From the NCBI GenBank assembly GCA_963793265.1, contig CAWBZI010000002.1, forward strand, positions 64,001-128,000: a stretch of DNA of 64,000 nucleotides, read 5' to 3'. Source of the DNA: an uncultured cyanobacterium. Its GTDB lineage: Bacteria > Cyanobacteriota > Cyanobacteriia > Phormidesmidales > Phormidesmidaceae. The notes under the pieces are model-generated. The model was not told the origin of the DNA. It searched no databases and saw nothing but the letters and a program-made list of their open reading frames with translations. Numbering within the stretch: position 1 is the stretch's first letter; every line of letters starts with the position of its first letter. Shown here one piece after another: positions 2,678 to 18,849 of the stretch. The translations under genes and the position numbers were made by a program.

Positions 2678-2722
2678 GGCTTTAGATGGTTTCTAAATAC
2701 TGTTGGTTTTGAGCCTGTGCTG

Positions 2723-3079: not shown

Positions 3080-3108
3080 ATTCTTAAAAAAACCTACTTC
3101 AGGATGTC

Positions 3109-3735
3109 CTATACTTTTACGACAGCTACGCCCATCATGGCCTCGGGCGTTATCAGCGCTGCTAAGTCTGCTTCACTCATGCCATCTGTTCCTTCTGGGC
3201 GCATCGGCAGCACCCACCAGCGAATCTGAGCGCTGGTATCCCAAATCCGAATTTCAACAGAATCGTCTAGCTTTACGCCAAATTCCGAGAGCACCACGCG
3301 CGGTTCTCTGGCAACCCGCGCCCTAAACGTCGGATCTTTAAACCAGTAGGGTGGCAGTCCTAGCGTAGGCCAAGGGTAGCAAGAACACAGGGTACATACA
3401 ATTACGTTGTGCACCGCTGGCGTGTTTTCAGCAATCCGCATGTGCTCGCCTTCTGCCCCTGACATGCCGTTTGGAAAGCCCAATTCCTCGCAGGCCGCAT
3501 TGCAGTCGGCAAGCAAACGCGCCTTAAAATCAGGATCTACCCAGGCTTTAGCGACGAGCTTAGCACCGTTAAATGGCCCCATTTTGGTTTCAAAGTGGCT
3601 CAGCACGGTGTCAACCGTCTTGCCTGTAAGAATGCCTTTTTCAATTAGCAAAGACTCTAGAGCTTTTACCTTTGCCTCGCTGGTTTTCTCGCGGTCTGCT
3701 GCTGGATACTTAAATCCAGGATAGTTACTGGGCAT
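3109..3735 (-). CDS. nthA: Cobalt-type nitrile hydratase alpha subunit
   Basis: Metal site VCTLCSCYPWP (Thr indicates Co-type), GAKLVAKAWVDPDFKARLL and REPRVVLSEFG. Confidence 0.95.
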   Translation of the reverse strand: MPSNYPGFKYPAADREKTSEAKVKALESLLIEKGILTGKTVDTVLSHFETKMGPFNGAKLVAKAWVDPDFKARLLADCNAACEELGFPNGMSGAEGEHMRIAENTPAVHNVIVCTLCSCYPWPTLGLPPYWFKDPTFRARVAREPRVVLSEFGVKLDDSVEIRIWDTSAQIRWWVLPMRPEGTDGMSEADLAALITPEAMMGVAVVKV

Positions 3736-3748
3736 AAGATTCTCTCTC

Positions 3749-4483
3749 CTAAAGCGCTTCTATGTACACTTCAAAAATGTCGTTGTAATAGACCATGTTC
3801 GAATCGGTCACTGTTTCCTCCCAAATATCTGTCGCCTTAATTGCGACGCTGTAAACGGGCATTGGCTCGCCCAAGCCATCTGTTGTGGGAAAAAAGTACG
3901 TGAATGCACCGTCGTATACTTTGACAATTTCGGCAACTTTGCCTCTGATGTGTCCGGGCAATCGGGTGTGTTCGCCTGAAGCGACGTTTTTGATTCTGAC
4001 GCGATCGCCTACTCCAAACTTAGGCTCACTATCCAAAGGCCGCTGCGGCGAATCCCCTTTCTCTAGGTACTTCACAATCTGCTCGTCGATAGCGCTCGCT
4101 TCTTTGTCTACTTGAACCTCGCTGCCCGAGAGATACGCCGCAGTCCTCTCATCTAGCTCAGCCTGCGTCATATAGCCTTCTCCGACAAAAAAGCCAGAAA
4201 TACCGCCCAGCCACTTTTCATAGTAGCGCAGCCGAAAGTACTCAAAAGGGTGCATTCCCTCAGCGCCCATGCGCAAGTGCCCCCAAGTCCAGAAGCTTTT
4301 GAACTCAGTAGGCACCTCATCAATTTTGTAGTCAGGAATGGAGTTGTCGAGATGGTTGCTGAGCGCCATCATCGCCGTATGAATGCCGAAAATGCGCTCT
4401 TCCCAAGGCTCAACAAACACTCTAGTTTCAAAGTTAACAGGATCGAGATTTTCTATACCCCCGATGTTGTGCTGTATTTTCAT
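3749..4483 (-). CDS. nthB: Nitrile hydratase beta subunit (divergent)
   Basis: FVEPWEERIF, YYEKWL and FGVGDRVRI...HTRLPGHIRGK (SH3-like C-domain). The N-terminus QHNIGG replaces the usual xHDxGG. Confidence 0.9.
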   Translation of the reverse strand: MKIQHNIGGIENLDPVNFETRVFVEPWEERIFGIHTAMMALSNHLDNSIPDYKIDEVPTEFKSFWTWGHLRMGAEGMHPFEYFRLRYYEKWLGGISGFFVGEGYMTQAELDERTAAYLSGSEVQVDKEASAIDEQIVKYLEKGDSPQRPLDSEPKFGVGDRVRIKNVASGEHTRLPGHIRGKVAEIVKVYDGAFTYFFPTTDGLGEPMPVYSVAIKATDIWEETVTDSNMVYYNDIFEVYIEAL

Positions 4484-4519
4484 AGTTCTTTTGGTATTGA
4501 AAGAGAGAATTGATTTTTT

Positions 4520-4549
4520 GTAGGGTGCATAGCAGTGCTATGCCCCTAC
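4520..4549. repeat. Solo GTAG-type REP palindrome
   Basis: GTAGGGTGCATAGCAGTGCTATGCCCCTAC; same core as the REPs inside the 162-bp MITE. Confidence 0.75.
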
Positions 4550-4592
4550 TCCGATATATTCTAGGTAAGGTTGTTCATTGTTGTTAGAATCT

Positions 4593-5573
4593 CTAAGCGT
4601 ATTCCAAAGCCTTTGCAAAGCAGCTCTGGAAACCTCTACGTAGCTCTGTTTCATCCAGATTTCGGCCAATAAATATCAGCTCATTCTGCCGAGCCTCACC
4701 TACTTTCCAAGGTTTTCCAGGCCGACCGTCTAGGGTCATATGCACCCCTTGAAACACAAATCGCCGGGGTTCATTGTCAGCATCTACGATGCCTTTCATT
4801 CGGAATATATCAGCGCCTTTTGCCTGCACTAGCTGGTAGAGCCAGCGGTTGAGCCGATCGCTATCTACCGAGCCCGCTTCTGTGATGGCAACAGAATGAA
4901 TAGTGCTGTCGTGGTCGTGCGCGTCTTCGTTGAGCAGCTCTGGATCGATGCTAAGCGCCTGCTGTAGATCGAAGGCTCCAACGCCGAGGATCTTATCTAA
5001 CGCAATGTTGCAGTTTTGCGTAGGGTGAATGGTAGAGATCGCATTCAGTCCTCTTACTTTCAAAGCCAGCGCCGCCAGCCGATCCGAGGAAATTAAATCT
5101 ATCTTGTTTAACAAAACAACATCGGCAAAAGCAATCTGCTCCTGCGCCTCACTGCTTCCCCAATGCGCGTCAATGTATTTAGCATCTATCACCGTAACCA
5201 CCGCATCTAGCTGCGTTTGCTTGGCCATTACCTCATCGACAAAAAATGACTGAATCACCGGAGCCGGATCGGCGAGGCCCGTCGTTTCAATCACGAGATG
5301 ATCGAAGCGATCGCCTCTGGCTATTAAATCGCTAATAATCCGAATCAGATCGCCCCTCACGGTACAGCAAATGCAGCCATTGTTCATTTCAAAAATCTCT
5401 TCATCGGCATCAATCACCAGTTGATGGTCGATGCCTACTTCTCCAAATTCATTGACAATCACCGCAATCTTTTTACCGTGTTCTTCAGTTAAGATGCGAT
5501 TTAATAGTGTTGTTTTGCCTGCTCCTAAGTATCCGGTGAGCACTGTAACCGGAATCTTTTGAGTCAATGCCAT
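4593..5573 (-). CDS. COG0523/CobW-family metallochaperone GTPase
   Basis: GYLGAGKT P-loop, NEFGE, GCICC metal motif, [13 protein letters not shown] and a CobW_C domain. Confidence 0.95.
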
Positions 5574-5628
5574 AGTAATACCCTTCTTTATTCGTAACAG
5601 ATTTTAAAGCGACAGTTTATAGCCCCTG

Positions 5629-6138
5629 TTAAACGCCGGGCGAAACTGACGTAGTGGTCATGGCCTTTCCCCAGGCTTCTGAGAGGTAGCCAAAAATAGC
5701 GCCCAGGATCATAGCTGCGATCGCAATCAAAATAGGATTATTCGGCAGCGCTGCGGTCACCGGCAAACCCGTCACCGCGACCGTTCCAACCGTCTGCGAA
5801 AACCCCCACACAATTGCAGGCGTAATACCATGAGTGAAAGGCAGCTTTGAGGCCTGAACCATCGCTGCGCTGCCGATGCCAACGCAAATAGCTGCAACTA
5901 TCGGACTGCTGCCAATTAAATCTATTGCCAGTAAAGATAGCGCGGCGATGACGATGCCTGTAATATTGCAGGCAACCGACTTGACGAAGCCTCGCTTACC
6001 CCCACCCACAACAAAGAAAGAAGCCCAAGCGGTAAACGTCACCCAGACCGGGACAAGAATAACGGTGGCCGTTAGCAAAACATCGACGCCACCTAGCACA
6101 CCAATACTAACGGTTAGAGCCTCAGATTGTTTCATCAC
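5629..6138 (-). CDS. DUF1097 (YcdZ-like) membrane protein
   Basis: Hydrophobic, about 5-6 TM; WVTFTAWASFF..GGG and GAIFGYLSE motifs; first gene of the NHase operon. Confidence 0.75.
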   Translation of the reverse strand: MMKQSEALTVSIGVLGGVDVLLTATVILVPVWVTFTAWASFFVVGGGKRGFVKSVACNITGIVIAALSLLAIDLIGSSPIVAAICVGIGSAAMVQASKLPFTHGITPAIVWGFSQTVGTVAVTGLPVTAALPNNPILIAIAAMILGAIFGYLSEAWGKAMTTTSVSPGV

Positions 6139-6394
6139 ACAGTTCCTTTTGTAGTTCCCTTTAATAGTCTCTTCGGAATTTTACTGGAAAGTTTTGCCTG
6201 AGAATAAAGACTTTCCTTACTGTTATGCACGACTTTATCACTCTTTCAAACAGAAAACAGTCTCTTTCAACACATTCTGTTTACTCAAGCCGTTACTCGG
6301 CTAGGGTTCAATACTATCTCTACAAAGTCCGATAAAAGAAATATATGAGTCAAATTAAAATCGCTATCTGTGAAACCACCTTAAGATAGATATC

Positions 6395-6410
6395 TGTATA
6401 TCTACTTACA
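6395..6410. promoter_or_regulatory. NtcA-binding site
   Basis: TGTA-TATCTACT-TACA is a perfect GTA-N8-TAC box, 58 bp upstream of the ATG at 6468, in the divergent NHase/ABC intergenic region. Confidence 0.7.
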
Positions 6411-6467
6411 GTTACAGCGTGGGTGGCGTGGATTAAATAGGGCAAATCGAAAGGAGTTCTCTCAGTT

Positions 6468-8069
6468 ATGAAACCAATTGTGATATCGCGTTATTCCTGG
6501 CTAAGAAGAGTTTCTATTGCCTGCGCGCTAACGCTTTCTACTACATTTGTTGCCAGTTGCTCTGGGCCGTCTTCAGTCTCAGAAGTCAGTACGACATCGG
6601 GCGAGACTGCTAGCGCTGAGTCTTTAGATGGCGAAACTATTCGTATCTCTATCGGAACTCAAGACCAAGTTATCAATACCGCTGTAGGCGGTGCCACTGT
6701 TAGAGAGTTAGATTTGTTAGAAAAGTATCTGCCTACAACCGGCAAATATGAGGGCGTGAAGTACGATATTGAGTGGTCTAGCTATACGTCCGGGCCACCT
6801 ATTACTAATAAAATGCTGGCCAACCAGATTGATATTGGCTTGATGGGAGACTTTCCTGCCGTTATCAATCTAATCAAGTTTCAAGAGGAAGTAGAAGGCG
6901 TCACCTCAACTTTTATTGGCACGCTAGCCTACAGTCCTAACGGTGCTGGGAACGCGGTAGTCGTTCCGAAAGATAGCGAAGTCACTTCTTTAGCCGATTT
7001 GAAAGGGGGGGCGGTATCAGTTCCCTTTGGTTCTGCCGCGCACGGCATGGTGCTAAAGGCGCTTACTGACGCAGGGATTGATCCAGAAACCGATGTAGAG
7101 CTAATTAGCCAAGCCCCAGAAGTAGGCGGCACTAGCCTTCGCACGGGGCAAATCGATGCCCATGCCGATTTTGTTCCCTTTGGCGAACTATTTCCATATA
7201 GAGGCTTTGCTAAAAAGATTTTTGACGGTGCACAAACTGGCGTGCCTACTCTACACGGAATTGTTGTTCGCTCCGACTTTAGCGAGAAATATCCAGAGAT
7301 TGTAGAAGCTTATCTCCAGGCGATGCTTGAAGCCAATCAGATGTTTCGAGATAATCCAGAAGAGATCTCTGCCCAAATTGAGGAGTGGTCTGGGATTGAG
7401 AAAGAAGTGGTGTACATGTTTTTAGGCCCTTCTGGTTTGCAGCCAATTAACCCTAGCATTGAGGAGGTTCAACTGTCGGCTCTAAAAAACAGTATTGCTA
7501 CGCTTATTAGCCTTGGGAAAATTGAATCGCCTGTCGATCCAGAGGATGTTACAGGATGGGTAGATGACGGCTTCTTAAAAGCTGCGATGGAAAACTCGGG
7601 GTTAGACTACGATGCAGTCATTGAAGAAGGTGAAAGCTATTTCATTACCGGACAAGATGCGCTGACAGGAGATGACATTGCAGAACCCAAGATGGCCGCT
7701 CAGCTATGGATTCAAGAAGAACCTACGGTGAGTAATTTTGCCTCTGTCCCTAACATGGTGACAAAGCTGAATGAGCTACAGGATGAGGGCAAAGCCGCCG
7801 ACGTGATTTTTGTACATGATCGTAACAAAGGATGGAAGCTGTTTGCGGAAAACGCTTACTATGTCACCAGCGGCGATGAGGTTTCTGCCTTTTTGCTAGA
7901 AGCTGACGCTACCGCGTTTGCATCTGAGTCTGGCGGGCAAGTTGTCTCTTTTAAGGATTTGCTCAAAACATACTCTGTTAGCGGCCCTCAGCCATCGCGC
8001 GTTAGTCGCATTACAGCAGATAACTTGCGACAGGCACTAAAGAAGGTCGTTCCTGCGCTGGCAGGATAG
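6468..8069 (+). CDS. SsuA/TauA/NMT1-type ABC substrate-binding lipoprotein with a C-terminal NosL-like extension
   Basis: Lipobox VASC; YTSGPP, IDIGLMGDFP, SLADLKG and PFGSAAH motifs; about 130 extra C-terminal residues. Confidence 0.85.
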   Translation: MKPIVISRYSWLRRVSIACALTLSTTFVASCSGPSSVSEVSTTSGETASAESLDGETIRISIGTQDQVINTAVGGATVRELDLLEKYLPTTGKYEGVKYDIEWSSYTSGPPITNKMLANQIDIGLMGDFPAVINLIKFQEEVEGVTSTFIGTLAYSPNGAGNAVVVPKDSEVTSLADLKGGAVSVPFGSAAHGMVLKALTDAGIDPETDVELISQAPEVGGTSLRTGQIDAHADFVPFGELFPYRGFAKKIFDGAQTGVPTLHGIVVRSDFSEKYPEIVEAYLQAMLEANQMFRDNPEEISAQIEEWSGIEKEVVYMFLGPSGLQPINPSIEEVQLSALKNSIATLISLGKIESPVDPEDVTGWVDDGFLKAAMENSGLDYDAVIEEGESYFITGQDALTGDDIAEPKMAAQLWIQEEPTVSNFASVPNMVTKLNELQDEGKAADVIFVHDRNKGWKLFAENAYYVTSGDEVSAFLLEADATAFASESGGQVVSFKDLLKTYSVSGPQPSRVSRITADNLRQALKKVVPALAG

Positions 8070-8248
8070 ATAGAAGAGATCTTGTTTGATACGCTTTGAT
8101 GAATACTTTTGCTACTTAGTCAGCACAACCTATCAAGCTTTTCTATTCGAGCCACAAAGCAATCTAAACTTAAGGACTGCTGTTTGAATAGATAAGCGCT
8201 TCGCACTTTTCCACCTTTTCCACGGATTCTTTTTCAAAGGTTTCTTCA

Positions 8249-9133
8249 ATGACAAACATCATCCCTACCAGCGGCGATGGCGAAATTACTCCCGTAGACT
8301 ATCGCGCGACTACCCAAAAACCCTCTAGGCTACTTCGCTTTCTACCAGCCAACTTATCTTCAAACCGCCCTGCCATGCGGCTATTGTCATTGGTTCTCTT
8401 TTTTGGCATCTGGCAATTTTTGTGCGTTATTGGCTTCGATTTCTTTATAAACTTTCAGCTAGTTCCCTCTCCAATGGAAGTTTCTAAAGCTACAGTTGAT
8501 TTTTTTCTAGACGCTCCGGGCGTACACATTCGCTCTAGTATTGTTCGGGTGCTAGCAGGTTTTGTCTTTGCCTCGGCCTTTGGTATTGTGATGGGAATGT
8601 TTATCGGCTGGTTTCAGCTAGCTGAAGACCTGATGATGCCTTGGCTAGAGCTGCTAAGACCGATTCCAGCAGTCGCGTGGATTCCGCTGGCAATTTTAAT
8701 CTTTCCAACTGCTGAAACGGGGATGATTTATATCACTTTTATCGGCGCGTTTTTTCCAGTTTTAATTAGCACCATTCGCGCGGTTGAAAACATCCTGCAT
8801 GACGTTGTGTTAATTCGCGTAGGCCAGTGCTTAGGTGCTAAACAATGGCATATATTTAAAGACATCGTGATACCGGGTTCGTTACCAGGTATTGCAGGCG
8901 GCTTAACTATTGGCATGGGAAATGCCTGGTTTTGCCTAGTTACCGCTGAGATTTTGGCAGGGCGATATGGCGTGGGCTACATCACTTGGGAGTCGTATGT
9001 AACCTCTAACTATCCGCCGATTGTGATGGGCATGTTATTGATTGGTCTGATGGGCGCGTTTAGCGCATGGGCAGTTGAGCGCGGAATGCAGGCCCTGATG
9101 CCTTGGCGAGTGATTAAAAAACAGAATGCGTAG
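8249..9133 (+). CDS. SsuC/TauC/NrtB-type ABC permease
   Basis: ELLRPIPAVAWIPLAI, EAA-like loop (GQCLGAKQW..FKDIVIP) and WFCLVTAEI. Confidence 0.92.
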   Translation: MTNIIPTSGDGEITPVDYRATTQKPSRLLRFLPANLSSNRPAMRLLSLVLFFGIWQFLCVIGFDFFINFQLVPSPMEVSKATVDFFLDAPGVHIRSSIVRVLAGFVFASAFGIVMGMFIGWFQLAEDLMMPWLELLRPIPAVAWIPLAILIFPTAETGMIYITFIGAFFPVLISTIRAVENILHDVVLIRVGQCLGAKQWHIFKDIVIPGSLPGIAGGLTIGMGNAWFCLVTAEILAGRYGVGYITWESYVTSNYPPIVMGMLLIGLMGAFSAWAVERGMQALMPWRVIKKQNA

Positions 9134-9226
9134 GTTAGGTTGAGCCCCAACCATCAACAGCCGTGCCCCGCCATCCCACCCGCGCGAAACCTAACATCTA
9201 TCAACACAACCGCAGGAGCGATCGCA

Positions 9227-10051
9227 ATGATTCAAAAAACACCTCCTAAGTTAAAAGCACCTGTAGAGCCAACTAAAGGCTCTGTGCAGGTAGAAGGGGT
9301 TTCGATGATCTTTGGGAAAAAAGGCCGAACAGCTCAGGTGCTAGACTCCGTTAATTTTCAAGTGAAGCCGGGTGAGTTTGTTTGTCTTTTGGGGCCTTCA
9401 GGCTGCGGAAAATCGACGCTGCTCAATATTATCGCTGGCTTTATCAAACCCTCAGCGGGCTATGTAATGGTAGATCGAAATCAGGTAGTCAAGCCAGGTG
9501 CGGATAGAGGTTTCGTTTTTCAGCAATACTCACTGCTGCCTTGGAAAACAACGTTTCAAAATGTGGAACTAGGTCTTAGAATCAAAGGAATGCCGAAGGC
9601 TGAACGAGAGGATATAGTCGGCGAATATTTAAACCTAGTTGGGCTAGGCAAGCATCGCGATGCGTATCCAGCGCAGCTCTCTGGCGGGATGAAACAGCGG
9701 GCAAGTATTGTTCGCGCATTGGTTAATTCGCCATCGGTGTTGCTGATGGATGAACCGTTTGCCGCGCTAGACGCGCAGACCCGACAGATGATGCAAGAAC
9801 TGCTGTTAAATATCTGGGAAACGCTGAAGACGACGATTGTATTTGTTACTCACGATATTGAAGAAGCGGTGTTTTTAGGCGATCGCATCTTCGTTATGGG
9901 CGTACAGCCAGGGCGCATCAAAGCCGAGATACCCATCTCTTTGAAACGGCCTCGCCATGTTGATGATATGCTTGCGCCAGAATTTACTCAGCTAAATCGG
10001 CAGGTCTTCAGTCTGATTCGAGAAGAAACGCTCAAAAGCATGGAGATATAA
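9227..10051 (+). CDS. SsuB/TauB/NrtD-type ABC ATPase
   Basis: [24 protein letters not shown] and VTHD. The ATG at 9227 follows AGGAG; the ORF track's TTG start at 9140 is less likely. Confidence 0.93.
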   Translation: MIQKTPPKLKAPVEPTKGSVQVEGVSMIFGKKGRTAQVLDSVNFQVKPGEFVCLLGPSGCGKSTLLNIIAGFIKPSAGYVMVDRNQVVKPGADRGFVFQQYSLLPWKTTFQNVELGLRIKGMPKAEREDIVGEYLNLVGLGKHRDAYPAQLSGGMKQRASIVRALVNSPSVLLMDEPFAALDAQTRQMMQELLLNIWETLKTTIVFVTHDIEEAVFLGDRIFVMGVQPGRIKAEIPISLKRPRHVDDMLAPEFTQLNRQVFSLIREETLKSMEI

Positions 10052-10133
10052 AAGGTTCTGTTACTTGTTCGCGAGAGAAGCAACCGGCTGCGAGCTTGAG
10101 ATCACTCAATGAGAGCAGCTTTAATACATTCTT

Positions 10134-12242
10134 CTACAGCGCAGACAAAGCCCTTTCCAAAAGCTCCGGCTGTATCCAGGTATCTAAGTTCAATTCACCT
10201 AACGCCTCGTTGCCTGCAATGGCTGAAAGCTGCTCGATATGCTCTGCAACCCAGTCCGTACGGATTTGGGTATCTGGGAAAAATAAACCTGTGCTATCCG
10301 AGCGCTGATGCGCCAGAGTTTTTATAACAATCTCGGGAGCGATTCCTGCCCAAGTACTCACCAAAGAAAGCGCGCTTGGCGTTGTCTCGTACCAATACTG
10401 TGCCGCTATGAGCGCCTTTAGGTAGGCAGTTACTAGCTCAGGGTGTTCCTCAGCTAGCGCTTCTCTGACCACAACGCCGTGGAACGTCGGCAGTCTATCG
10501 GCGTCACCCTCTAGCAAGCGCCGAAACTGTCCCTTATGGCTAGCGATATCGTGCAGCGGTGCAAAATATGCATAGCCATCGGCTTGTGGGTTGCGTGGCG
10601 TTAGCCGATGAATACTCAGATTATCAATAGAGGTAAGTGTCACCTCTGGCAGTAGATCTGCCCGCGCTAGCGATCGCATAATCATGCCGTGAGCCGCAGA
10701 GGCGAAAGGCACAGCGATTATCCGGTCGCGCAGGTCATCCCAACTCACCAGTGAAGAGCGATTGGGCACAATCACCGTATTCCCGGCACCGTCGGGGTTA
10801 CTAGCAATAAAGCTAACTAGCCGAGTTTTGGTCAGGTGCGTTTTTGACTGAGACAATTCTGTAGAGAAACTTTGTGAGTCTGTTGCTGAAGGCAGACCGC
10901 TGAGTAGTAGAGGATAGTCTCCCAATATGCCAATATCTAGCTGGTCAGACTGTAGCCCAGCGACAATGGGTGCTCCCGATGTAAAGTCGCGCCACTGAAC
11001 CTGATATTCAGCGCCCTGATATCGCCCACACCGAGGTAGAAAGTGTTCGAGCAGCCCTAAATGTTGAATGATTAAGCCTGCCGTTACCGTTTGAATGGTT
11101 CTATTTTGGGTGCCGATTGCGATCCTTAGCGTTTCAGATTTACGCTCGTCAGATCCGATATGCCTATGGTATGAGGTCTTAGAATGTACGGATGTCTGCC
11201 AGCGAACAGGTAGCTTAGGCGCTATCTGGGGGATCAAACCAGATTTTTTACCCTTGGTTGGAGAAGTTAATTTTTGACGGCGGCTGTATCCTGTTCTCTC
11301 GTAGACGAGCTGAACGAACTGCTGTAATGGTTTTTGAAAGCTACGCGTTTGAGACTGATAGTCGCGTTTGCCCTGTTGCTGGGGGTGCAGCATAAACAGC
11401 TCAAAATTCAGCGGGAATTCTTGTAGCGAAATTGCGGTGAGTATTTTGGCTTTTCGCTCCATCTGAAACTGGAAGCTAGATGCAAATCCCAGATAGTGCC
11501 CCTGACTGAGGAAGGTACTCATCAAACTAGGAGATTGTACAATCTCGCGGTTGGGAAAATCGGATAGCTGCAAACCCAGTTCGCTGAGCCGACTGGCTAG
11601 CACCATCGAGTCCGGCGTGGAAGCTTCTGGCAGTGCCCAAACTTCCTCAGTCAGTTCTCGCAGGCTTAACCACTCGCGAGTAGCCAACCGATGATCGGCT
11701 GCTACTACTAAAGAGTACTGAAAGCTATCAACCGGAATAGCCTCTATTGCTTCAAAGTCTTTTGTGTTATCCGAAAAGATATTTTCTGTAGCAAGCGATT
11801 CAGAGAAAGCAGCGTCAATATCGCCTGCTGCAACTGCCTGATAGATGTCTTGCACTGTTCTAAATGACACGCATTGCAAATTAACCTCAGGATACTTCTG
11901 CCGGTAGGCAAATACAATTTTGGGCAACCATCCGCTGGCAATATTTGGCGTACAGCCAATCTTTAGCTGGTTAAACTTCCTTTGTTTTATGGCTTCAATT
12001 TCTTTAGTTAGACGGCATTCTAAATCAATCAAACTAGGCCCAGCATTTAGCAAATAGTTTCCTGCTGCCGTAAGCTCTATTTTGCGACCAAGGCGGTTAA
12101 ACAAATCGGTTGATAGGCTTACCTCTAAAGACTTTATCTTAGCGCTGACTGCGGGCTGAGTCAGGCTGAGTTCGTCAGCAGCTTCTGTAAAGCTAAGCCG
12201 ACGAGCTACTGCTAAAAAAACCCTGAGCTGGTAGATTTCCAT
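10134..12242 (-). CDS. LysR-family regulator fused to an SsuA-like substrate-binding domain
   Basis: N-terminal LysR HTH (LSFTEAADELSLTQPAVSAKIKSLE) and effector domain. The C-terminal ~330 aa align by eye to the SBP at 6468 (IAIGTQ, FTSGAP, LDIGILGDYP, PFASAAHG, PTFHGVVVR). Confidence 0.9.
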   Translation of the reverse strand: MEIYQLRVFLAVARRLSFTEAADELSLTQPAVSAKIKSLEVSLSTDLFNRLGRKIELTAAGNYLLNAGPSLIDLECRLTKEIEAIKQRKFNQLKIGCTPNIASGWLPKIVFAYRQKYPEVNLQCVSFRTVQDIYQAVAAGDIDAAFSESLATENIFSDNTKDFEAIEAIPVDSFQYSLVVAADHRLATREWLSLRELTEEVWALPEASTPDSMVLASRLSELGLQLSDFPNREIVQSPSLMSTFLSQGHYLGFASSFQFQMERKAKILTAISLQEFPLNFELFMLHPQQQGKRDYQSQTRSFQKPLQQFVQLVYERTGYSRRQKLTSPTKGKKSGLIPQIAPKLPVRWQTSVHSKTSYHRHIGSDERKSETLRIAIGTQNRTIQTVTAGLIIQHLGLLEHFLPRCGRYQGAEYQVQWRDFTSGAPIVAGLQSDQLDIGILGDYPLLLSGLPSATDSQSFSTELSQSKTHLTKTRLVSFIASNPDGAGNTVIVPNRSSLVSWDDLRDRIIAVPFASAAHGMIMRSLARADLLPEVTLTSIDNLSIHRLTPRNPQADGYAYFAPLHDIASHKGQFRRLLEGDADRLPTFHGVVVREALAEEHPELVTAYLKALIAAQYWYETTPSALSLVSTWAGIAPEIVIKTLAHQRSDSTGLFFPDTQIRTDWVAEHIEQLSAIAGNEALGELNLDTWIQPELLERALSAL

Positions 12243-12489
12243 GGCGTGATCGCGAGCATTACAGCAACGCTTTAAGGGAACCTAAACAAACTGTAAACTG
12301 GCTTGAGATTGACTCACAAATAAGCCTCTACTTTGTCGGGAAAACAAAGCTTTTACTTATCAACATGCTTTGATAAAAATGGCTTGCCAATGATAGTCAC
12401 TTCAGCAGCCTATAGCTTCCACTGCTGTAAAAACTAGACTTGCTATTATCTGTTTTTATGAGTGTATAAGATAGATTGATTGCTAAACT

Positions 12490-12503
12490 GTGCGTTTTGA
12501 TAC
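12490..12503. promoter_or_regulatory. Possible variant NtcA site (GTG-N8-TAC)
   Basis: tGTGCGTTTTGATACa in the LysR/flavoprotein divergent region; one mismatch to consensus. Confidence 0.35.
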
Positions 12504-12774
12504 ACATCGTATAGGGTTTATTGCTGAGTCTATTAACATAGTCACATAAGAAATAAATCAGATTTGTTGTTCCAAGATTCCCTTGTCATCTATATCCAAT
12601 GCGTAGCTTCGCAAGCAACCTTTGTGTTTTTCGCTTCGATCCTTTGAAGAATTTGGAACTACAGAGATCGAGATTGTGTAGATCGAAATAGTCAAGAATC
12701 TGAGTTCTACAGTCGAGCTAAGCACTTCGTTTTGTTAAGGCCCGTATAGCCACCCTTACAACTGAGGATTTTGT

Positions 12775-14478
12775 GTGAATATTCAGCATCTACAAACAGA
12801 TTTTTTGGTGATTGGCGGCGGTACCGCAGGTACGATGGCTGGCATTAAAGCCAAGCAGGCTAATCCCGAGGCAGACGTGCTGATTCTAGAGAAAGCGAAC
12901 ATTCGCCGGAGTGGCGCGATCGCAATGGGTATGGACGGGGTTAACACCGCTGTTATTCCTGGTAACTCTACTCCTGAGCAGTACGTTCGAGAAATTACCA
13001 TCGCCAATGACGGCATTCTCAATCAAAAGTCGGTTTATCAAACCGGACGCTGGGGCTTTGAGGTGATTCAAGAGCTAGAAAGCTGGGGCGTAAAGTTTCA
13101 AAAAGACCGCGAAGGTAATTACGATCTTAAGCAGGTACACCGCGTAGGTAAGTATGTGCTTCCTATGCCCGAAGGCAAGGATCTCAAAAAGATTCTTGCT
13201 CGCCAGGTAAAACGCCATAAAGTGAGCGTTACCAACCGCGTTATGGCCACTCGCGTCATGGTAAAAGAGGGTCGCGCTATTGGAGCTGTCGGCTTTGACA
13301 CGCGCAAAGGAGACTTTGTGGTGATTCAAGCTAAGGCGGTAGTGCTCTGCACCGGAGCCTGTGGAAGACTGGGCCTACCCGCTTCAGGCTATCTGTATGG
13401 CACCTATGAGAACCCTACCAACGCGGGCGATGGCTACTCTATGGCTTACCACGCAGGAGCCGAACTCACAAATATTGAATGCTTCCAAATTAACCCCTTA
13501 ATTAAAGACTACAACGGCCCAGCCTGCGCCTACGTTGCTAGCCCCTTTGGAGCCTACACCGCTAATGCCGAGGGCAACCGCTTCATTAACTGCGACTATT
13601 GGAGCGGTCAAATGATGCTGGAAACCTGGAAAGAATTAAACTCAGGCAAAGGGCCGGTACACCTCAAGATGTATCATCTAGACGACGATACCATCTCAGA
13701 GATTGAGCGGGTATTGTGGGCTAACGAACGGCCTAGCCGCGAGCGGTTCCACGAAGGCCGAAAGCAGGACTATCGAAAACATGGCGTCGAGATGAATATC
13801 TCGGAGATCGGGCTTTGCAGCGGTCATAGTGCCTCCGGGGTTTGGGTAAATGAGAGGGCAGAAACAACAATACCCGGTCTGTATGCCGCTGGCGATATGG
13901 CCAGCGTACCGCATAACTATATGATTGGAGCCTTTGTCTCTGGGCGACTTTCAGGCATCAACGCCATGGACTACATTCAGACACTAGAGCATGTAGAGCC
14001 CGATGAGGATTTCCTTGCTGCGGAGAAAGCTCGCATTTACGCACCGCTGAGTCGCCCGGACGGGGTTCCACACACTCAGGTGGAATATAAGCTGCGTCGC
14101 TATGTGAATGACTATCTTCAGCCGCCAAAGTCTCCTACCAATATGGATATTGGTCTGGCTGCTTTTGAGAACTATCATGAAAGCTTAGACATGATGGGTG
14201 CAACAGACCCGCACGAGCTGATGCGCTGCATGGAAGTTCACTTTATTCGTGACTGCGCGGAGATGGCTGCTAGGGCTTCTCTTTACCGAAAAGAGAGCAG
14301 ATGGGGCCTGTATCACTATCGACTAGACTATCCTGAAAAGAATGATGAGGAGTGGTTTTGTCATGCGAACTTGAAGAAGAGCGCAACAGGCAATATGGAA
14401 ATGTTTAAGCGGGCAGTGGAGCCTTATATTGTGGACGTAAATATGGAGCAGGAGGTTTACGATGTGGCGGTAAGGTAA
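12775..14478 (+). CDS. AprA/AsfA-like FAD flavoprotein (fumarate reductase/APS reductase superfamily)
   Basis: IGGGTAG FAD motif; RSGAIAMG (AprA-like, without the covalent-FAD His of SdhA/FrdA); GHSASGVWV; PGLYAAGD; HELMRC..RKESRWG..HYRLDYP. Confidence 0.85.
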   Translation: MNIQHLQTDFLVIGGGTAGTMAGIKAKQANPEADVLILEKANIRRSGAIAMGMDGVNTAVIPGNSTPEQYVREITIANDGILNQKSVYQTGRWGFEVIQELESWGVKFQKDREGNYDLKQVHRVGKYVLPMPEGKDLKKILARQVKRHKVSVTNRVMATRVMVKEGRAIGAVGFDTRKGDFVVIQAKAVVLCTGACGRLGLPASGYLYGTYENPTNAGDGYSMAYHAGAELTNIECFQINPLIKDYNGPACAYVASPFGAYTANAEGNRFINCDYWSGQMMLETWKELNSGKGPVHLKMYHLDDDTISEIERVLWANERPSRERFHEGRKQDYRKHGVEMNISEIGLCSGHSASGVWVNERAETTIPGLYAAGDMASVPHNYMIGAFVSGRLSGINAMDYIQTLEHVEPDEDFLAAEKARIYAPLSRPDGVPHTQVEYKLRRYVNDYLQPPKSPTNMDIGLAAFENYHESLDMMGATDPHELMRCMEVHFIRDCAEMAARASLYRKESRWGLYHYRLDYPEKNDEEWFCHANLKKSATGNMEMFKRAVEPYIVDVNMEQEVYDVAVR

Positions 14479-14575
14479 TCGCCCGCTCTACGAAGAAATG
14501 CCAGTGCTCTTCATTCTCTGACTCACGCCCCTAGCTCGCACCCAAGCCTCTTAACCTTCATTCAAAACTCTCCTT

Positions 14576-14803
14576 ATGGCCTTAGCAACTCAGCGCGTCG
14601 ATGTTCCCGTTATTGTAGACGAATCTAAATGTCTTGAAAAATGCGTTGCCTGCATTGAGGTATGCCCGCTTGACGTCTTAGTGAAGAATCCAGAAACCGG
14701 CAAAGCCTACATGAAATACGACGAATGTTGGTTCTGCCTTCCTTGCGAAAAAGAATGTCCTACCAATGCCATCACCGTTCAAATTCCGTTTCTGTTGCGC
14801 TAA
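14576..14803 (+). CDS. AprB/AsfB-like 2x[4Fe-4S] ferredoxin
   Basis: CLEKCVACIEVCP and CWFCLPCEKECP cluster motifs. Confidence 0.92.
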   Translation: MALATQRVDVPVIVDESKCLEKCVACIEVCPLDVLVKNPETGKAYMKYDECWFCLPCEKECPTNAITVQIPFLLR

Positions 14804-14818
14804 GGAAAAGCTTCGACC

Positions 14819-15808
14819 ATGACTACAGATATCACTACCAGTCTCGATCCTGAAGTCGCGCAGTGGGTAGATATGTTGAGATCACAAGACCTCAGCGATC
14901 GCCTCGTTGCTGCTAAAGCGCTTCAGCACATGGGTGACGAGGACACCATTAACGCTCTTATTGATGTTCTTGATGATGAGAGCCCTGCGGTACAAGAAAT
15001 TGCTATTACAGCTCTATGGGAGATGGCAAACCCAGTTGTGGTCAAACCTTTGCTGAAATGCCTGGGCTCGGATCGCGAAGAAGCCGTCAGAGGAGAAGCA
15101 CTCTCTGCGCTAAAAGAGATTATCTCCCCAGACGATCTGCTCACGCTACTAGACGCAATTCATATAGACGATGAACAGATGCAGCTTAATGTGCTGATTC
15201 TACTACGAAAAATTCACGACGCCCAAGCACTTGCCTATGTTCTACCGTTCTTTAAGTCGGATAGTTCCGCCCTCAGAGAAGCGTCAATAGTCACCCTACG
15301 CTATCTTAATCAGGTCGTGCGCTGCGAGCCTGCTCTAGCGCTGACCAAAGACCCAGTTGAACAGGTTCGTCGTTCGGCAATGCTGACACTTGGCCACTTA
15401 ACCGACGATGCGGTAGTGCCTCTACTTTGCGAAGCGGCAACTGCTGATTTTGACTGGCAAGTGCGCCGTAACGCGGCCCAAGCTTTGGATCTTCACCACA
15501 CAACAGCCGCCCTGCCCGCGCTTATTAAGGCTATGGGAGACGAACATTGGCAGGTTCGTAAGTTTGCGGCTCGCGCCTTGCAAGCTGTTGCGAACCAGAC
15601 TGCCATACCCTGCATGATTAAAGCCCTTTCAGATGAATATTCTGATGTTCGGAAAGAAGCTGCGATCGCACTCGGAAAAATCGGCCATTCTGACGCCCTA
15701 CCCGCCCTACAGCAAACGCTAGACGACCCTGATAGGGACGTGCAAATCTTCTCTGGGCGCGCCATCCAATCTATTCAGAAGCAGCTAGCGGAAGTGCCCA
15801 ATGCCTAA
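14819..15808 (+). CDS. HEAT-repeat (PBS lyase-like) protein
   Basis: Repeated D..xxVRxxAAxAL...AxPxLxxAL units. Confidence 0.9.
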   Translation: MTTDITTSLDPEVAQWVDMLRSQDLSDRLVAAKALQHMGDEDTINALIDVLDDESPAVQEIAITALWEMANPVVVKPLLKCLGSDREEAVRGEALSALKEIISPDDLLTLLDAIHIDDEQMQLNVLILLRKIHDAQALAYVLPFFKSDSSALREASIVTLRYLNQVVRCEPALALTKDPVEQVRRSAMLTLGHLTDDAVVPLLCEAATADFDWQVRRNAAQALDLHHTTAALPALIKAMGDEHWQVRKFAARALQAVANQTAIPCMIKALSDEYSDVRKEAAIALGKIGHSDALPALQQTLDDPDRDVQIFSGRAIQSIQKQLAEVPNA

Positions 15809-16904
15809 TCATCCCTCTCCTTTGGTTTCTAACACCTATTCAGTGCCCGACGCTGCACCTGAAAATCTTGCTATAGAAGCCAGAAAACAACAGGTGACGG
15901 CGTACCTTAGAAAAGTCATTGAACCCACGCTTAACAACAATATTGTCGAACTGGGTATGGTTCGCAATCTACGCGTGACTGATGACTACGTTTATCTGAA
16001 ATTATATATTGGGGCTCATCAACACTTTCTTCAAGATGAAGCCCAGCGGGTTTTAGACAATCTGAGCTGGTGTAAGAAAGCCTATATTCAGCTTTGCACA
16101 ATTCCGGGCGTGCGCACAACGCTGGCCATTTCTAGCGGTAAAGGCGGCGTAGGCAAATCTACAACGGCGGTGAACCTGGCCGCTGCACTGACTAAAGCCG
16201 GAGCAAAAGTGGGCGTTCTAGATGCGGATATCTATGGCCCTAATGTCCCTCAGATGCTGGGATTAGGCCATGCCGAGGTAGAAGTTGTAGAGACAGCCCA
16301 AGGAAAAAGGTTTAAGCCGTTGGAGGCTCATGGTATCAAGGTGATGTCGGTGGGTTTGCTAGCCGGGCCTGACCACCCGCTGGCTTGGCGAGGGCCTGTG
16401 TTGCATAAAATTATCACACAGTTTATTCAAGAGGTGGATTGGGGGGAGCTAGATTATCTTTTAATTGATCTGCCGCCAGGGACAGGCGATGCTCAAATCA
16501 CAATTATTCAAGAGAGTCCTATATGCGGGGTGGTGATGGTGACAACGCCGCAGCAGGTTGCGGTATCTGACGTGCGGCGCAGCATTTATATGTTCCATCA
16601 GGTAGGGGTACCCGTGTTAGGAATGGTAGAGAATATGAGCTATTTAATCTGTGAATGCTGTGGCGATCGCACGTCTATTTTTGGCGAGGGCGGCGGCGAG
16701 CAGATAGCCAAAGAGCTGTCTGTTCCACTCTTGGGAAAAGTGCCAATCGACTCCAAAATTTGTCAGGGCGGTGATGATGGAAAACCGCTTCCGCTAGTAG
16801 ACGAAGCGGCACCGCTTTCCGTTGTCTTTGGCGCGATCGCCGCAGGCATCAATCAAACCTTTACGCCTAGCCTATTAAACCTGTCGTCTACGGCATCAGG
16901 CTAG
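15801..16904 (+). CDS. apbC: Mrp/ApbC (NBP35) Fe-S cluster carrier with N-terminal DUF59-like domain
   Basis: SGKGGVGKST, DADIYGP, WRGP, DLPPGTGD and ENMSY..CECC; overlaps the HEAT gene stop. Confidence 0.92.
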   Translation: MPNHPSPLVSNTYSVPDAAPENLAIEARKQQVTAYLRKVIEPTLNNNIVELGMVRNLRVTDDYVYLKLYIGAHQHFLQDEAQRVLDNLSWCKKAYIQLCTIPGVRTTLAISSGKGGVGKSTTAVNLAAALTKAGAKVGVLDADIYGPNVPQMLGLGHAEVEVVETAQGKRFKPLEAHGIKVMSVGLLAGPDHPLAWRGPVLHKIITQFIQEVDWGELDYLLIDLPPGTGDAQITIIQESPICGVVMVTTPQQVAVSDVRRSIYMFHQVGVPVLGMVENMSYLICECCGDRTSIFGEGGGEQIAKELSVPLLGKVPIDSKICQGGDDGKPLPLVDEAAPLSVVFGAIAAGINQTFTPSLLNLSSTASG

Positions 16905-16946: not shown

Positions 16947-17963
16947 GTGCTACAGAGAATGAAGTCTTCAGGAGAATCTGAATTTAATTTAGCGATTCAA
17001 AAAGCGTTGCATCGTTCGGTAACAATACACTTCACGCTCCAACAAGTGCTATTTTTGAGCATTGCAAGCTGCTCCCTAACGCCTTGGGTTTCACCGCCCA
17101 TCGCTCTAACATCAGGAATGGGAGTGGCCTTGACCATTCAGAATCCTTTCCTGCACACCAGCCGATGGCTCGCTCGCCAGCTTTTACAGCTCTGCGTTAT
17201 CCTGCTCGGCTTTGGCATGGATTTAGCGATTGTGCTGCAAGCAGGTCAAACGGGCGCTACATTTGCGGCAATCAGTATTGGCATGACGTTAGCAATAGGG
17301 TACTGGCTTGGAGCGTGGCTCAAAATCCCAGTGAAGATTTCTATCTTAATTTCGGCAGGCACAGCAATCTGTGGCGGTTCTGCGATCGCAGCAGTCGCGA
17401 CCGTCGTTGGTGCGGCAGAGCAAGAGATTTCGATCGCAATAGGCACCGTTTTCTTACTCAATGCCGCAGCGCTCTACATTTTTCCGCTGCTGGGGCACGG
17501 TTTGCATCTATCTCCAGACCAGTTTGGTATTTGGGCAGGCATTGCTATTCACGATATTTCTAGCGTTGTCGGTGCTGCGTCGTATTTTGATACAGCGTCG
17601 TTGGATATCGCAACGGCGGTTAAACTCTCTCGGACGCTCTGGATTGTTCCTATCTCGCTCATTTTTTCATTTCTGTTTCAGCGCCAGCAGACTCGACGCA
17701 CAAGAGTACGTATCCCCTGGTTTATTGGTTTATTTCTATTGGCATCGCTCGCAAGGACGTTTGTGCCGAACGTCGTAAACTGGTCGCCTGCGCTAACGCA
17801 ATTTTCAGAAGCTGGATTGAAGCTGACATTATTTTTGATTGGAACAGGACTATCGCTACAGGCACTAAAGGCAGTGGGTTGGCGGCCCATTGCTCAAGGA
17901 ATAGTGCTATGGGTTGTTATCAGTATTAGCTCTCTTGGCACGATTTTGCAGTTAGTCCGCTGA
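16947..17963 (+). CDS. YeiH/UPF0324 putative sulfate exporter
   Basis: GTAICGGSAIAA, GIAIHDISSVVGA and ATAVKLSRTLW motifs; about 10 TM; start codon uncertain. Confidence 0.88.
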   Translation: MLQRMKSSGESEFNLAIQKALHRSVTIHFTLQQVLFLSIASCSLTPWVSPPIALTSGMGVALTIQNPFLHTSRWLARQLLQLCVILLGFGMDLAIVLQAGQTGATFAAISIGMTLAIGYWLGAWLKIPVKISILISAGTAICGGSAIAAVATVVGAAEQEISIAIGTVFLLNAAALYIFPLLGHGLHLSPDQFGIWAGIAIHDISSVVGAASYFDTASLDIATAVKLSRTLWIVPISLIFSFLFQRQQTRRTRVRIPWFIGLFLLASLARTFVPNVVNWSPALTQFSEAGLKLTLFLIGTGLSLQALKAVGWRPIAQGIVLWVVISISSLGTILQLVR

Positions 17964-18123: not shown

Positions 18124-18849
18124 ATGTCCACAGAATTAATTATTGTTTTGACCGTGGGCGTCGCTTCTTTTGTTCGAGGCGTTACTGGCTTCGGAGCCGC
18201 GCTAATTGCTATGCCGATTGTCTCTGGACTTACCGGCGTTTACACGGCGGCTCCTCTTATGGCAATCATTGGCCTGACTAACGATACGTTGCTATGTCTT
18301 TACTACCGACGTTCTTTTAACTGGGGCATCGTCGCCCATCTATGGATAGGGTCAGCTTTAGGTATCCCTGTTGGTTTTTTGATATTACGGGTTTTCCCAG
18401 GCGACTCTATGCTTTCAGCACTAGGTATTGTGATAGCGGCCTATGCTATCTATGCTTTGTTTGATCCGGTAATGCCTATTTTGAAGTCACGTCAGTGGGT
18501 ATATGCCACTGGTTTTTTGTGCGGTGCTTTGGGCAGCAGCTATAACTTACCAGGGCCACCGGTTATTTTGTATGGCAACAGCCAGCGATGGAGCCAGGAC
18601 AAGTTTAAAAGCAATCTTAGTATTTTCTTTTTGGGAAATGCTGTTTTGGTCGTGTTGGGCCATGTTGCTCAAGATAGGTTTTCTAGCGCTATTTTGCACC
18701 AATATATTATTGCAGTCCCCAGCATAGCGATTGGGCTATTTTCAGGTATTGTCCTCTCAAAATTTTTTAATCCGGTGCTATTTAGGAAAGTTGTCTTAGT
18801 GCTTCTAGTTGCAATCGGCATTCAACTGTTTCTTATAGAGCCCATTTAG
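18124..18849 (+). CDS. TauE/SafE-family sulfite exporter
   Basis: VRGVTGFGAALIAMP, GSALGIPVG and G.LGS...PGPP motifs; about 8 TM. Confidence 0.88.
   Translation: MSTELIIVLTVGVASFVRGVTGFGAALIAMPIVSGLTGVYTAAPLMAIIGLTNDTLLCLYYRRSFNWGIVAHLWIGSALGIPVGFLILRVFPGDSMLSALGIVIAAYAIYALFDPVMPILKSRQWVYATGFLCGALGSSYNLPGPPVILYGNSQRWSQDKFKSNLSIFFLGNAVLVVLGHVAQDRFSSAILHQYIIAVPSIAIGLFSGIVLSKFFNPVLFRKVVLVLLVAIGIQLFLIEPI

Follow-up and report, generated by a model that had tools for sequence, protein, structure and literature searches.

In the AmiC-AmiR and NasS-NasT systems, a separate cytoplasmic sensor with the fold of a substrate-binding protein (SBP) is paired with a regulator that acts on antiterminators. 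The gene described here lies in a stretch of 64,000 nucleotides (nt) from an uncultured cyanobacterium of the Phormidesmidaceae (contig CAWBZI010000002.1; the whole stretch is called the window below), and its product resembles these systems in that a transcription regulator would be controlled by a ligand sensor with a binding-protein fold inside the cell. However, AmiC-AmiR and NasS-NasT each consist of two proteins, whereas the window encodes both functions in one chain, in which a LysR-type DNA binder that already possesses a binding-protein-like effector domain is followed by an SBP-like domain.

A second parallel is offered by the cyanobacterial transporter subunits NrtC and CmpC. The cytoplasmic SBP-like domain of NrtC is reported to be about 30% identical to NrtA and to bind nitrate in its cleft (PMC10945777). 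Like NrtC and CmpC, the protein from the window is a cytoplasmic protein that carries, at its C-terminus, a signal-less relative of the SBP of the same system, with an identity of 34% here against the roughly 30% reported for NrtC. In NrtC and CmpC, however, the domain is described as part of the nucleotide-binding subunit, where it controls transport post-translationally through PII, whereas here its fusion partner is a DNA-binding regulator, and no SBP-type domain occurs in the ATPase of the neighbouring importer. Furthermore, the nearest structures of the C-terminal domain are TauA and SsuA, not NrtA and CmpA.

The regulator itself can be compared with NtcB, a LysR protein that is described as co-activating the nirA promoter (PnirA) with NtcA by DNA looping, from an NtcA box centred at -41.5 and a NtcB box of 37 base pairs (bp) at -100 to -64 (bioRxiv 10.1101/2022.10.10.511513). 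Both are cyanobacterial LysR proteins dedicated to one nutrient-assimilation locus with an ATP-binding cassette (ABC) importer of the NitT/TauT family. However, NtcB, at about 310 residues, lacks a third domain, whereas the protein here has 702 residues and an SBP-like domain, and it is not an NtcB ortholog, given that RbcR and BenM score higher than NtcB in a family profile search. A fusion of LysR and SBP was not found described in full-text literature searches or in one review of LysR regulators (subscription journals lay outside their scope), in agreement with a preliminary description of the locus, made from the sequence alone, which knew of no characterised case.

The protein is a real, conserved and uncharacterised variant of the LysR regulators with a probable second sensor derived from a transporter. 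The reading that we consider somewhat likelier to be right than wrong is that the tethered SBP copy senses the imported compound, and that the regulator is predicted to switch on the divergently transcribed operon of a flavoprotein resembling adenosine 5'-phosphosulfate (APS) reductase, and probably also the importer, likely together with NtcA.

The open reading frame (ORF) of the regulator is uninterrupted over all 702 codons, where an ordinary LysR protein has about 300, and the gene is present as a single copy in the genome (Table 1). Pfam matches to HTH_1 (73.1 bits, E 1.8e-20, cut-off 26.6) and LysR_substrate (84.9 bits, E 6.7e-24, cut-off 28) identify a winged helix-turn-helix (wHTH) domain and an effector domain, and the family profile search matched the full-length structures of RbcR (5y2v, E 7.1e-37), BenM and NtcB (8h3v, E 4.2e-30). 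Both defining domains place the protein in the LysR family, and it is atypical through an additional domain of 334 amino acids (aa), which accounts for the excess length pointed out in the preliminary description. The effector domain is followed by an interdomain stretch with a computed isoelectric point of 10.9, in which the most frequent residues are K, Q, S and R. Across 38 homologues this linker varies between 59 and 149 aa without a single invariant column, and residues 325-367 have a predicted local distance difference test (pLDDT) score below 50 in the full-length AlphaFold2 (AF2) model. One semi-conserved motif, [VI]-[YH]-[LF]-[QK]-[SA]-P, was seen by eye in the alignment of the otherwise unconserved tether (residues ~348-360; window ~11160-11200, minus strand), about 15-20 residues N-terminal of the SBP-like domain, and could be a docking element.

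The C-terminal domain matches NMT1_2 at residues 506-623 (27.5 bits, Pfam cut-off 24.7) and, at residues 478-646, the NCBIfam model SsuA_fam with 62.9 bits, which is under the cut-off of 163.5. In a BLASTP alignment of regulator residues 369-639 with residues 55-315 of the neighbouring SBP, 93 of 273 positions are identical (34%, E 3e-59), and this similarity is far beyond chance. The alignment begins C-terminal of a hydrophobic stretch of the SBP that ends in FVASC and that, read by eye, appears to be a lipoprotein signal. No counterpart of this stretch, or of the NosL-like tail of the SBP (residues 407-500), is present in the regulator domain. Lacking an export signal, the domain is by its sequence SBP-derived and not a transport SBP, and the earlier account of an SBP-like part of about 330 aa, placed behind a basic linker and without a signal peptide, was accurate.

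The fusion is rare but genuine and conserved. A search of 5.8 billion proteins with a length limit of 386-1229 aa returned 376 matches, and the best 120 of these 376 are 588-780 aa long with identities of 49-100%; 119 of them cover at least 95% of the query. HTH_1 and LysR_substrate were found in all of these 120, and an SBP-type Pfam family in 102. The organism names given by the sources among the matches listed are cyanobacteria throughout (e.g., Phormidesmis, Leptolyngbya, Nodosilinea, Synechococcus sp. PCC 7335 and Crinalium), and short matches of high identity look like fragments of short contigs. An exhaustive HMMER pass over 1.84 billion representatives gave about 12 full-length clusters at the 50% level, among them distant ones down to 27-32% identity, one of which is named Cyanobium sp., and no stand-alone close relative of the C-terminal domain. 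The other long LysR matches in the top 150 are tandem LysR-LysR proteins, not SBP fusions. In addition, the ESM Atlas contains two cyanobacterial clusters (58 and 112 members) that combine HTH_1 with NMT1 or NMT1_2. Database labels of these proteins read either 'LysR family transcriptional regulator' or 'NitT/TauT ... substrate-binding protein'.

At the nucleotide level, each of 25 related loci from species-representative genomes contains one uninterrupted match to the regulator, with identities of 51-77%. Among 401 evenly sampled cyanobacterial genomes, the regulator is present in five, the window's own genome counted, and none of the five copies has an internal stop; it was not found in the other two sampled genomes of the same family. 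The junction is also covered by public sequence data. A contig of 6812 nt from a public run (X1), possibly from the source sample, spans 10061-12900, and a contig from a second study (X3, record 13) covers 11061-12125 with 0 differences and joins the SBP domain to the linker and the effector domain. In none of four public sequencing runs is an insertion, a deletion or a joint listed at the fusion. Among the 10 runs listed altogether, none was from RNA. Since X1 may come from the source sample, X3 and X4 constitute the independent assembly support. Thus, homologues are not always two separate genes, as the full-length relatives, the 25 uninterrupted loci and the five census genomes demonstrate, and contigs of two studies bridge the junction without insertions or deletions, so that the fusion described from one sequence is borne out by both assemblies and homologues.

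Constraint on the domains was expressed as the share of invariant columns in the alignment of the 38 homologues. This share is 45% in the wHTH (residues 1-65), 9% in the effector domain (residues 91-290; 17 of 200 columns), 0% in the tether (residues 291-368) and 28% in the SBP-like domain (residues 369-702; 93 of 334). Judged from this alignment, the SBP-like domain is the most constrained of the large domains, and its invariant residues gather in the motifs IGTQN, FTSGAP, GDYP, NPDGxGN, VPFxSxAHG, DGYAYFAP and PTFHG. Modelled alone from an alignment of 52 rows, the domain reached an AF2 pLDDT of 90.1 and a predicted template modelling (pTM) score of 0.91. The best Foldseek matches of this model are TauA (6ssy, E 1.6e-18) and SsuA (3ksj, E 2.3e-18), which identifies the type II fold of binding proteins, and further matches are DszB, CmpC's cytoplasmic regulatory domain (9uak, E 1.8e-14; also 9uai), NrtA, and NrtC in the NrtBCD complex (8wm7_C, E 6.5e-11). 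The relation to TauA and SsuA is also detected by sequence (phmmer E 2.6e-11; family profile E 4.2e-15).

The ligand contacts of TauA provide a frame for comparing the two SBP-type proteins of the locus. In TauA, Gln30 is reported to hold the sulfonate of taurine together with the backbone NH groups of Gly61, Gly79 and Thr132, and the amine is reported to be held by Glu106, Thr132 and Asp205, with Trp176 and Ser60 lining the site (PMC6906117). These contacts were mapped by HMMER alignments with an offset of 21 between the numbering of the paper and that of the chain, which fits seven residues. Written as TauA/regulator/transporter SBP, the aligned positions are Ser60/S422/S108, Gly61/G423/G109, Gly79/G441/G127, Glu106/N488/N162, Thr132/A516/A190 (A190 read from the aligned PFGSAAHG motif), Trp176/F560/F235 and Asp205/H588/H263. 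The regulator domain and the transporter SBP have identical residues at all seven. Six of them are invariant or nearly so in the 38 regulators (H588 in 37), and A516 is either A or S. The alignments start at TauA chain residue 26-31, so Gln30 falls outside them; by motif position only, Q379 of the regulator and Q65 of the SBP, at the end of strand 1, stand at its expected place.

Like TauA and SsuA, the regulator domain has the fold and the oxyanion-holding positions (Ser-Gly, Gly and the helix N-terminus at PFxSxAHG). Unlike them, it has no export signal, it scores below the SsuA_fam cut-off, and the amine-holding Glu106 and Asp205 correspond to Asn and His. By the alignments, the oxyanion cradle is kept in both the regulator domain and the transporter SBP, and the amine-binding acids of TauA have been replaced in both; because of these two replacements, taurine itself is not implied as the ligand. 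The matching contact residues support a common non-taurine anionic ligand of the two proteins, probably of the sulfonate, sulfate-ester or N-sulfo type. The earlier proposal that the SBP domain senses the imported substrate fits both the seven identical contact positions and the 28% of invariant columns.

The origin of the domain was addressed with unrooted trees, calculated by FastTree and by an IQ-TREE quick search, in which all 62 domain sequences were retained. All 31 regulator domains fall into one clade with a support of 100 in both trees, apart from all transporter SBPs, and the 11 cognate cyanobacterial SBPs form a clade of their own (support 99-100) that is nested among other transporter SBPs. 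The nearest non-fused relatives of the C-terminal domain are SBPs with a NosL-like tail, P0137 and P0139 (34-36% identity). On this phylogeny, the domain branched off the transporter SBP family once and long ago and did not arise by recent copying of the gene beside it. Across the loci, the cognate SBPs change far more slowly than the regulator does, with identities of 73-88% against 51-77%. The preliminary description had called the domain a cytoplasmic duplicate of the transporter's own SBP. A cytoplasmic relative of that SBP family it is, but a recent duplicate of the gene next door it is not, in view of the separate clade and of 64 positions that are conserved within each group yet differ between the groups.

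The regulator gene stands between two sets of genes that recur with it (Table 1). All 23 of the related loci that extend upstream of the regulator gene have the flavoprotein gene in divergent orientation, with flavoprotein identities of 87-96%, and the HEAT-repeat and Mrp/ApbC genes follow it wherever the contig is long enough. The same divergent regulator-flavoprotein pair recurs in all five census genomes, where an SBP paralog lies at a distance of about 2.5 kb. The best solved relative of the flavoprotein is 8a8o, the alpha subunit of a PAPS reductase (PAPS, 3'-phosphoadenosine 5'-phosphosulfate; E 3.5e-71), followed by AprA; the source describes 8a8o as belonging to a dissimilatory-type PAPS reductase of the methanogen Methanothermococcus thermolithotrophicus (PMC10322725). 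On the other side, cognate ABC importer genes with at least 75% identity lie within 10 kb of the regulator in 16 of the 25 related loci. Three loci offer 9-10 kb of sequence downstream without cognate ABC genes being seen there, and six further contigs end too early.

Table 1. Position, strand and basis of assignment of the features of the regulator locus, in window coordinates.
Feature	Position	Strand	Basis or remark
LysR-SBP fusion regulator gene	10134..12242	-	702 aa, stop codon included; ORF list and translation
wHTH DNA-binding domain, residues 5-61	12060..12230	-	Pfam HTH_1
LysR effector-binding domain, residues 91-290	11373..11972	-	Pfam LysR_substrate
Interdomain stretch, residues 291-368	11139..11372	-	Predicted helix ~303-325, then basic low-complexity tether of variable length
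SsuA/TauA-type (NitT/TauT family) binding-protein domain without signal, residues 369-702	10137..11138	-	
Palindrome of 18 bp, TTTTAT-N6-ATAA(G/A)A	12454..12471		Predicted operator of the regulator; 24/24 orthologous intergenic regions
GTG-N8-TAC box (NtcA-like), flavoprotein side	12490..12503	+	34 nt centre-to-centre from the palindrome
Flavoprotein gene (APS-reductase-like, flavin adenine dinucleotide), 567 aa	12775..14478	+	Divergent from regulator; NCBIfam PRK08275, 999 bits
Ferredoxin ORF, 75 aa, 2x[4Fe-4S]	14576..14803	+	Between flavoprotein and HEAT genes; Pfam Fer4_7, Fer4
HEAT-repeat protein gene	14819-15808	+	Pfam and NCBIfam
Mrp/ApbC-type Fe-S carrier ATPase gene	15801-16904	+	Pfam and NCBIfam
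YeiH-family membrane protein gene (PF03601)	16947-17963	+	After the Mrp gene
TauE/SafE sulfite exporter gene (PF01925)	18124-18849	+	75.9 bits; after the YeiH-family gene
Conserved 36-bp block (ATAAAAGAAATcTATgaGTC...AAtc.TtAT)	6332..6367	+	Candidate second operator; upstream of the NtcA box, 13/13 regions
Consensus NtcA box GTA-N8-TAC upstream of SBP gene	6396..6409	+	Then TTAAAT at 6433-6438 after 23 nt
Convergent ABC importer operon	6468..10051	+	Pfam and NCBIfam
Importer SBP gene, 533 aa	6468-8069	+	C-terminal NosL-like domain
Importer permease gene	8249-9133	+	
Importer ATPase gene, 303 aa	9140-10051	+	Pfam: P-loop ATPase families only, ABC_tran best; no SBP-type family

The flavoprotein has a wider distribution than the regulator. 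It occurs in 24 of the 401 sampled cyanobacterial genomes, and 19 of these 24 have no fused regulator. From these 19 genomes, 10 loci (L034-L043; G041, G020 and G370 are among the genomes) were compared as stretches of 19 kb. Within these stretches there was no LysR match at E 1e-8 and no split form of the regulator. In nine of the 10 loci, an SsuA-like SBP gene with 25-28% identity lies directly upstream of the flavoprotein gene on the same strand. Two such ORFs were read (356 and 362 aa) and have a lipoprotein-like N-terminus; one of them was scanned and has no NosL domain. The fused regulator is a trait of one sub-lineage of the flavoprotein system.

The divergent intergenic regions between regulator and flavoprotein are 153-593 nt long and have one common block in 24 of 24 loci. 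The arms of the palindrome are complementary at six of six positions in 16 of these regions and at five of six in the other eight. A divergently oriented target operon and a dyad operator between the two genes are typical of LysR regulators, and the arrangement of flavoprotein operon and palindrome agrees with this. A single match to the palindrome is present in the window, where 0.05 would be expected. Its 15-mer core has one exact site in the genome, and the matches with two mismatches number seven, against seven for a reversed-pattern control, which gives no sign of further palindrome targets in the genome. After the palindrome, toward the flavoprotein gene, a conserved AAAT.AATCGA stretch is found, and a GT[G/A]-N8-TAC box (GTG in 20 regions, GTA in four) keeps its 34-nt spacing from the palindrome in all 24. 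A TTGAGG-like -35 element occurs in many of the 24 regions, and a TAnnnT element follows the box after 30-31 nt in all of them (12534-12539 in the window). The start inferred from these elements lies about 20 nt before the flavoprotein ATG in four species, which supports the assignment of the predicted flavoprotein promoter. A generic scan of 9900-12900 for sigma-70 promoters and terminators gave results below the shuffled expectation. In the window, the flavoprotein leader would be about 230 nt long (12546-12774, plus strand) if the inferred -10 element at 12534-12539 is right, compared with about 20 nt in the four related species. No Rfam match was obtained at E up to 1 over 5500-15000, the leader included.

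Upstream of the importer SBP gene, a GTA-N8-TAC box was found in 13 of 13 regions, with TTAAAT (in one locus TTCAAT) 22-23 nt further on. The canonical NtcA geometry is described as a GTA-N8-TAC box with a -10 element about 22 nt downstream (PMC3898017; bioRxiv 10.1101/2022.10.10.511513), and the predicted SBP promoter has this canonical NtcA-activated geometry. The conserved 36-bp block that precedes the box has the words ATAAAA.AAATC and TATGAGT in common with the flavoprotein-side consensus. Conserved NtcA-type boxes at both promoters point to nitrogen status as a further input, which would be conveyed by a separate protein and which the preliminary description had not foreseen. This layout resembles that reported for PnirA, in which an NtcA box also has a conserved block upstream, the 36 bp at the SBP promoter here corresponding to the 37-bp NtcB box. 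However, the operators differ (ATGC-N7-GCAT for NtcB, against the predicted TTTTAT-N6-ATAAAA here), and the spacing between block and NtcA box is 28 bp by our own count, compared with 15 bp given for PnirA. The promoter layout is analogous, not identical, to that of PnirA.

These observations can be combined in a model of tethered sensing. The wHTH domain would bind the palindrome region as an ordinary LysR tetramer, and the SBP domain on its tether would bind the imported compound in the cytoplasm, closing on the ligand. Either the ligand-bound or the ligand-free C-terminal domain would then alter the LysR core, most likely by docking on it reversibly; the length, variability and predicted disorder of the tether make rigid coupling unlikely. 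NtcA would add the nitrogen-status signal, such that transcription would need both nitrogen shortage and the compound, by analogy with NtcA and NtcB at the nirA promoter. The ligand would be an organic oxyanion of the sulfonate, sulfate-ester or N-sulfo type, from which the sulfur would leave as sulfite and the remainder would yield nitrogen. Release of sulfite is proposed because an APS-reductase-like enzyme, TauE and YeiH are encoded nearby.

Several observations weigh against this model, and some of them lead to other explanations. The effector domain retains the conserved motifs W105 and GHYLGF (residues 248-253) and could be the true sensor. A related explanation is that the protein receives two small-molecule inputs, as the preliminary description had suggested, with the SBP-like domain responding to the imported substrate and the effector domain to another metabolite, for example a product such as sulfite. 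The effector domains of LysR proteins usually bind ligands. The domain here gives a full Pfam match (84.9 bits), and its polar and aromatic residues W105, H184, R218, E221, H249, Y250, E262 and E275 are invariant or nearly so. On the other hand, it is less conserved than the other sensor-type domain, the SBP-like one (9% of columns invariant, compared with 28%), and the usual LysR pocket loops, which we take to lie at about residues 98-104 and 128-132 of the regulator, vary, with column identities of 0.26-0.71 and 0.34-0.45. Furthermore, none of the analyses here provided a candidate ligand for it. Two inputs are therefore a tentative proposal, and one that is a variant of tethered sensing by the SBP-like domain and compatible with it.

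The 64 group-specific positions bear on what the SBP-like domain binds. Several of the differing pairs lie beside contact residues (D66/N380, F129/Y443, N158/D484, H232/Y557, D234/Y559 and L262/F587, given as SBP/regulator), so the ligands of the regulator domain and of the transporter SBP could differ. Such differences may tune the affinity, for example to cytoplasmic concentrations, or shift the specificity to a derivative. The second possibility leads to the explanation that what the domain senses is not the substrate itself but a related metabolite, or a derivative or product that forms from the imported compound in the cytoplasm. The age and separateness of the regulator clade are in its favour, as is the case of CmpC, whose regulatory domain is reported to have been crystallised in the presence of nitrate even though the transporter carries bicarbonate (PDB 9uai; PMC13287603). 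However, the regulator domain and the transporter SBP agree at seven of seven aligned TauA contact positions, and the differences could equally serve to adjust affinity. Sensing of a derivative is considered unlikely, and sensing of the imported compound itself is preferred.

The coupling between the domains is a further weak point of the tethered-sensor model, because the signal path from the C-terminal domain to the LysR core is inferred. The tether (59-149 aa) is unconserved, and the full-length AF2 model, built with 38 close homologues, has a mean pLDDT of 66.8 and a pTM of 0.39, without fixed domain packing or usable interdomain geometry. A long flexible tether would suit a module that reaches out and docks, and the SBP-like domain could accordingly be imagined to work without a ligand, as a protein-docking, oligomerisation or autoinhibitory module that contacts, for example, the enzyme complex, the transporter or PII. 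In NrtC, the regulatory domain is described as acting through PII binding, and uptake in a nitrate-site mutant as being like that of the wild type (PMC10945777). Nevertheless, the strictest conservation in the regulator domain is at the TauA-type contact positions and the adjoining motifs IGTQN, SGAP, GDYP, NPDGxGN, PFxSxAHG, DGYAYFAP and PTFHG, which is the pattern expected of a working binding cleft, and a domain without a ligand is improbable.

The idea that the protein is an artefact, in which a LysR gene and an SBP gene appear as one because of faulty sequencing, loss of a stop codon or wrong gene calling, found nothing in its favour and is excluded by full-length relatives (the best 120 of 376), 25 of 25 uninterrupted loci, five of five census genomes without an internal stop, contigs of two studies that bridge the junction without insertions or deletions, and a C-terminal domain without the signal peptide expected of a separate SBP gene.

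Three points on the regulatory DNA also count against the model in its present form. The flavoprotein-side box stands 30-31 nt from the -10-like element, not at the 22 nt canonical for NtcA, and may be part of the LysR site instead of an NtcA site. The NtcA-type boxes are inconsistent in the 10 loci that have the flavoprotein but lack the regulator. In addition, the 12-mer ATAAAANAAATC, which the candidate second operator and the flavoprotein side share, has two matches in the window where 1.66 would be expected and is thus not above chance, so that the evidence for the candidate operator is its conservation across species. For the same reason, this 12-mer was dropped as a probe for further members of the regulon.

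An extension of the tethered-sensor model, which we regard as conceivable but rather doubtful, would be a new mode of control for a LysR regulator, in which the receptor, docking on and off the LysR core according to ligand, forms, together with NtcA, a gate that opens only when nitrogen is poor and the compound is present. Such a gate would point to a hitherto undescribed cyanobacterial pathway in which nitrogen is obtained from an organosulfur compound by way of the APS-reductase-like flavoenzyme and sulfite is exported.

The regulator is of relevance to work on LysR proteins and on cyanobacterial nitrogen control. As a natural and conserved case of a LysR protein with a second, transporter-derived sensor, it would reveal how the LysR tetramer can be steered by an added ligand-binding module. 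The importer SBP and the cytoplasmic sensor, as a matched pair for one ligand, would serve biosensor design. It also offers a handle on the substrate of an APS-reductase-like flavoprotein operon that is widespread in cyanobacteria (24 of 401 sampled genomes), given that the C-terminal domain of the regulator should be a soluble cytoplasmic reagent for capturing that substrate.

Some features of the surrounding genes were recorded in addition. The tail of the importer SBP (residues 407-500) is a NosL-like domain (Pfam PF05573, 29.8 bits, cut-off 24); the full length is kept in 12 of 12 cyanobacterial SBP orthologs, and P0137 and P0139 carry the same domain. In eight related loci, a YeiH-like gene (24-33% identity) is located between regulator and importer. 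A nitrile hydratase cluster on the minus strand (2003-5573), with genes for the alpha and beta subunits, an accessory protein, a CobW-type GTPase and a HupE/UreJ metal transporter, adjoins the importer operon of the window. Of the 25 related loci, only two have nitrile hydratase genes near the regulator, and in one of these two the genes separate regulator and importer; they are outside the conserved core of the module. Finally, a protein of 779 aa that is present in two sources (P0145) combines an SBP-NosL part in one frame with HEAT repeats and with a hydrophobic segment that contains LGGC. It was rejected as a Rosetta-stone link, because the hydrophobic segment with its lipobox-like LGGC and the 49% identity of its SBP part to the SBP of the window indicate a transporter SBP or a run-on, not a cytoplasmic domain. 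P0145 represents a fusion anchored in the membrane or else a run-on in gene calling, and in both cases the HEAT and SBP genes adjoin each other in another organism.

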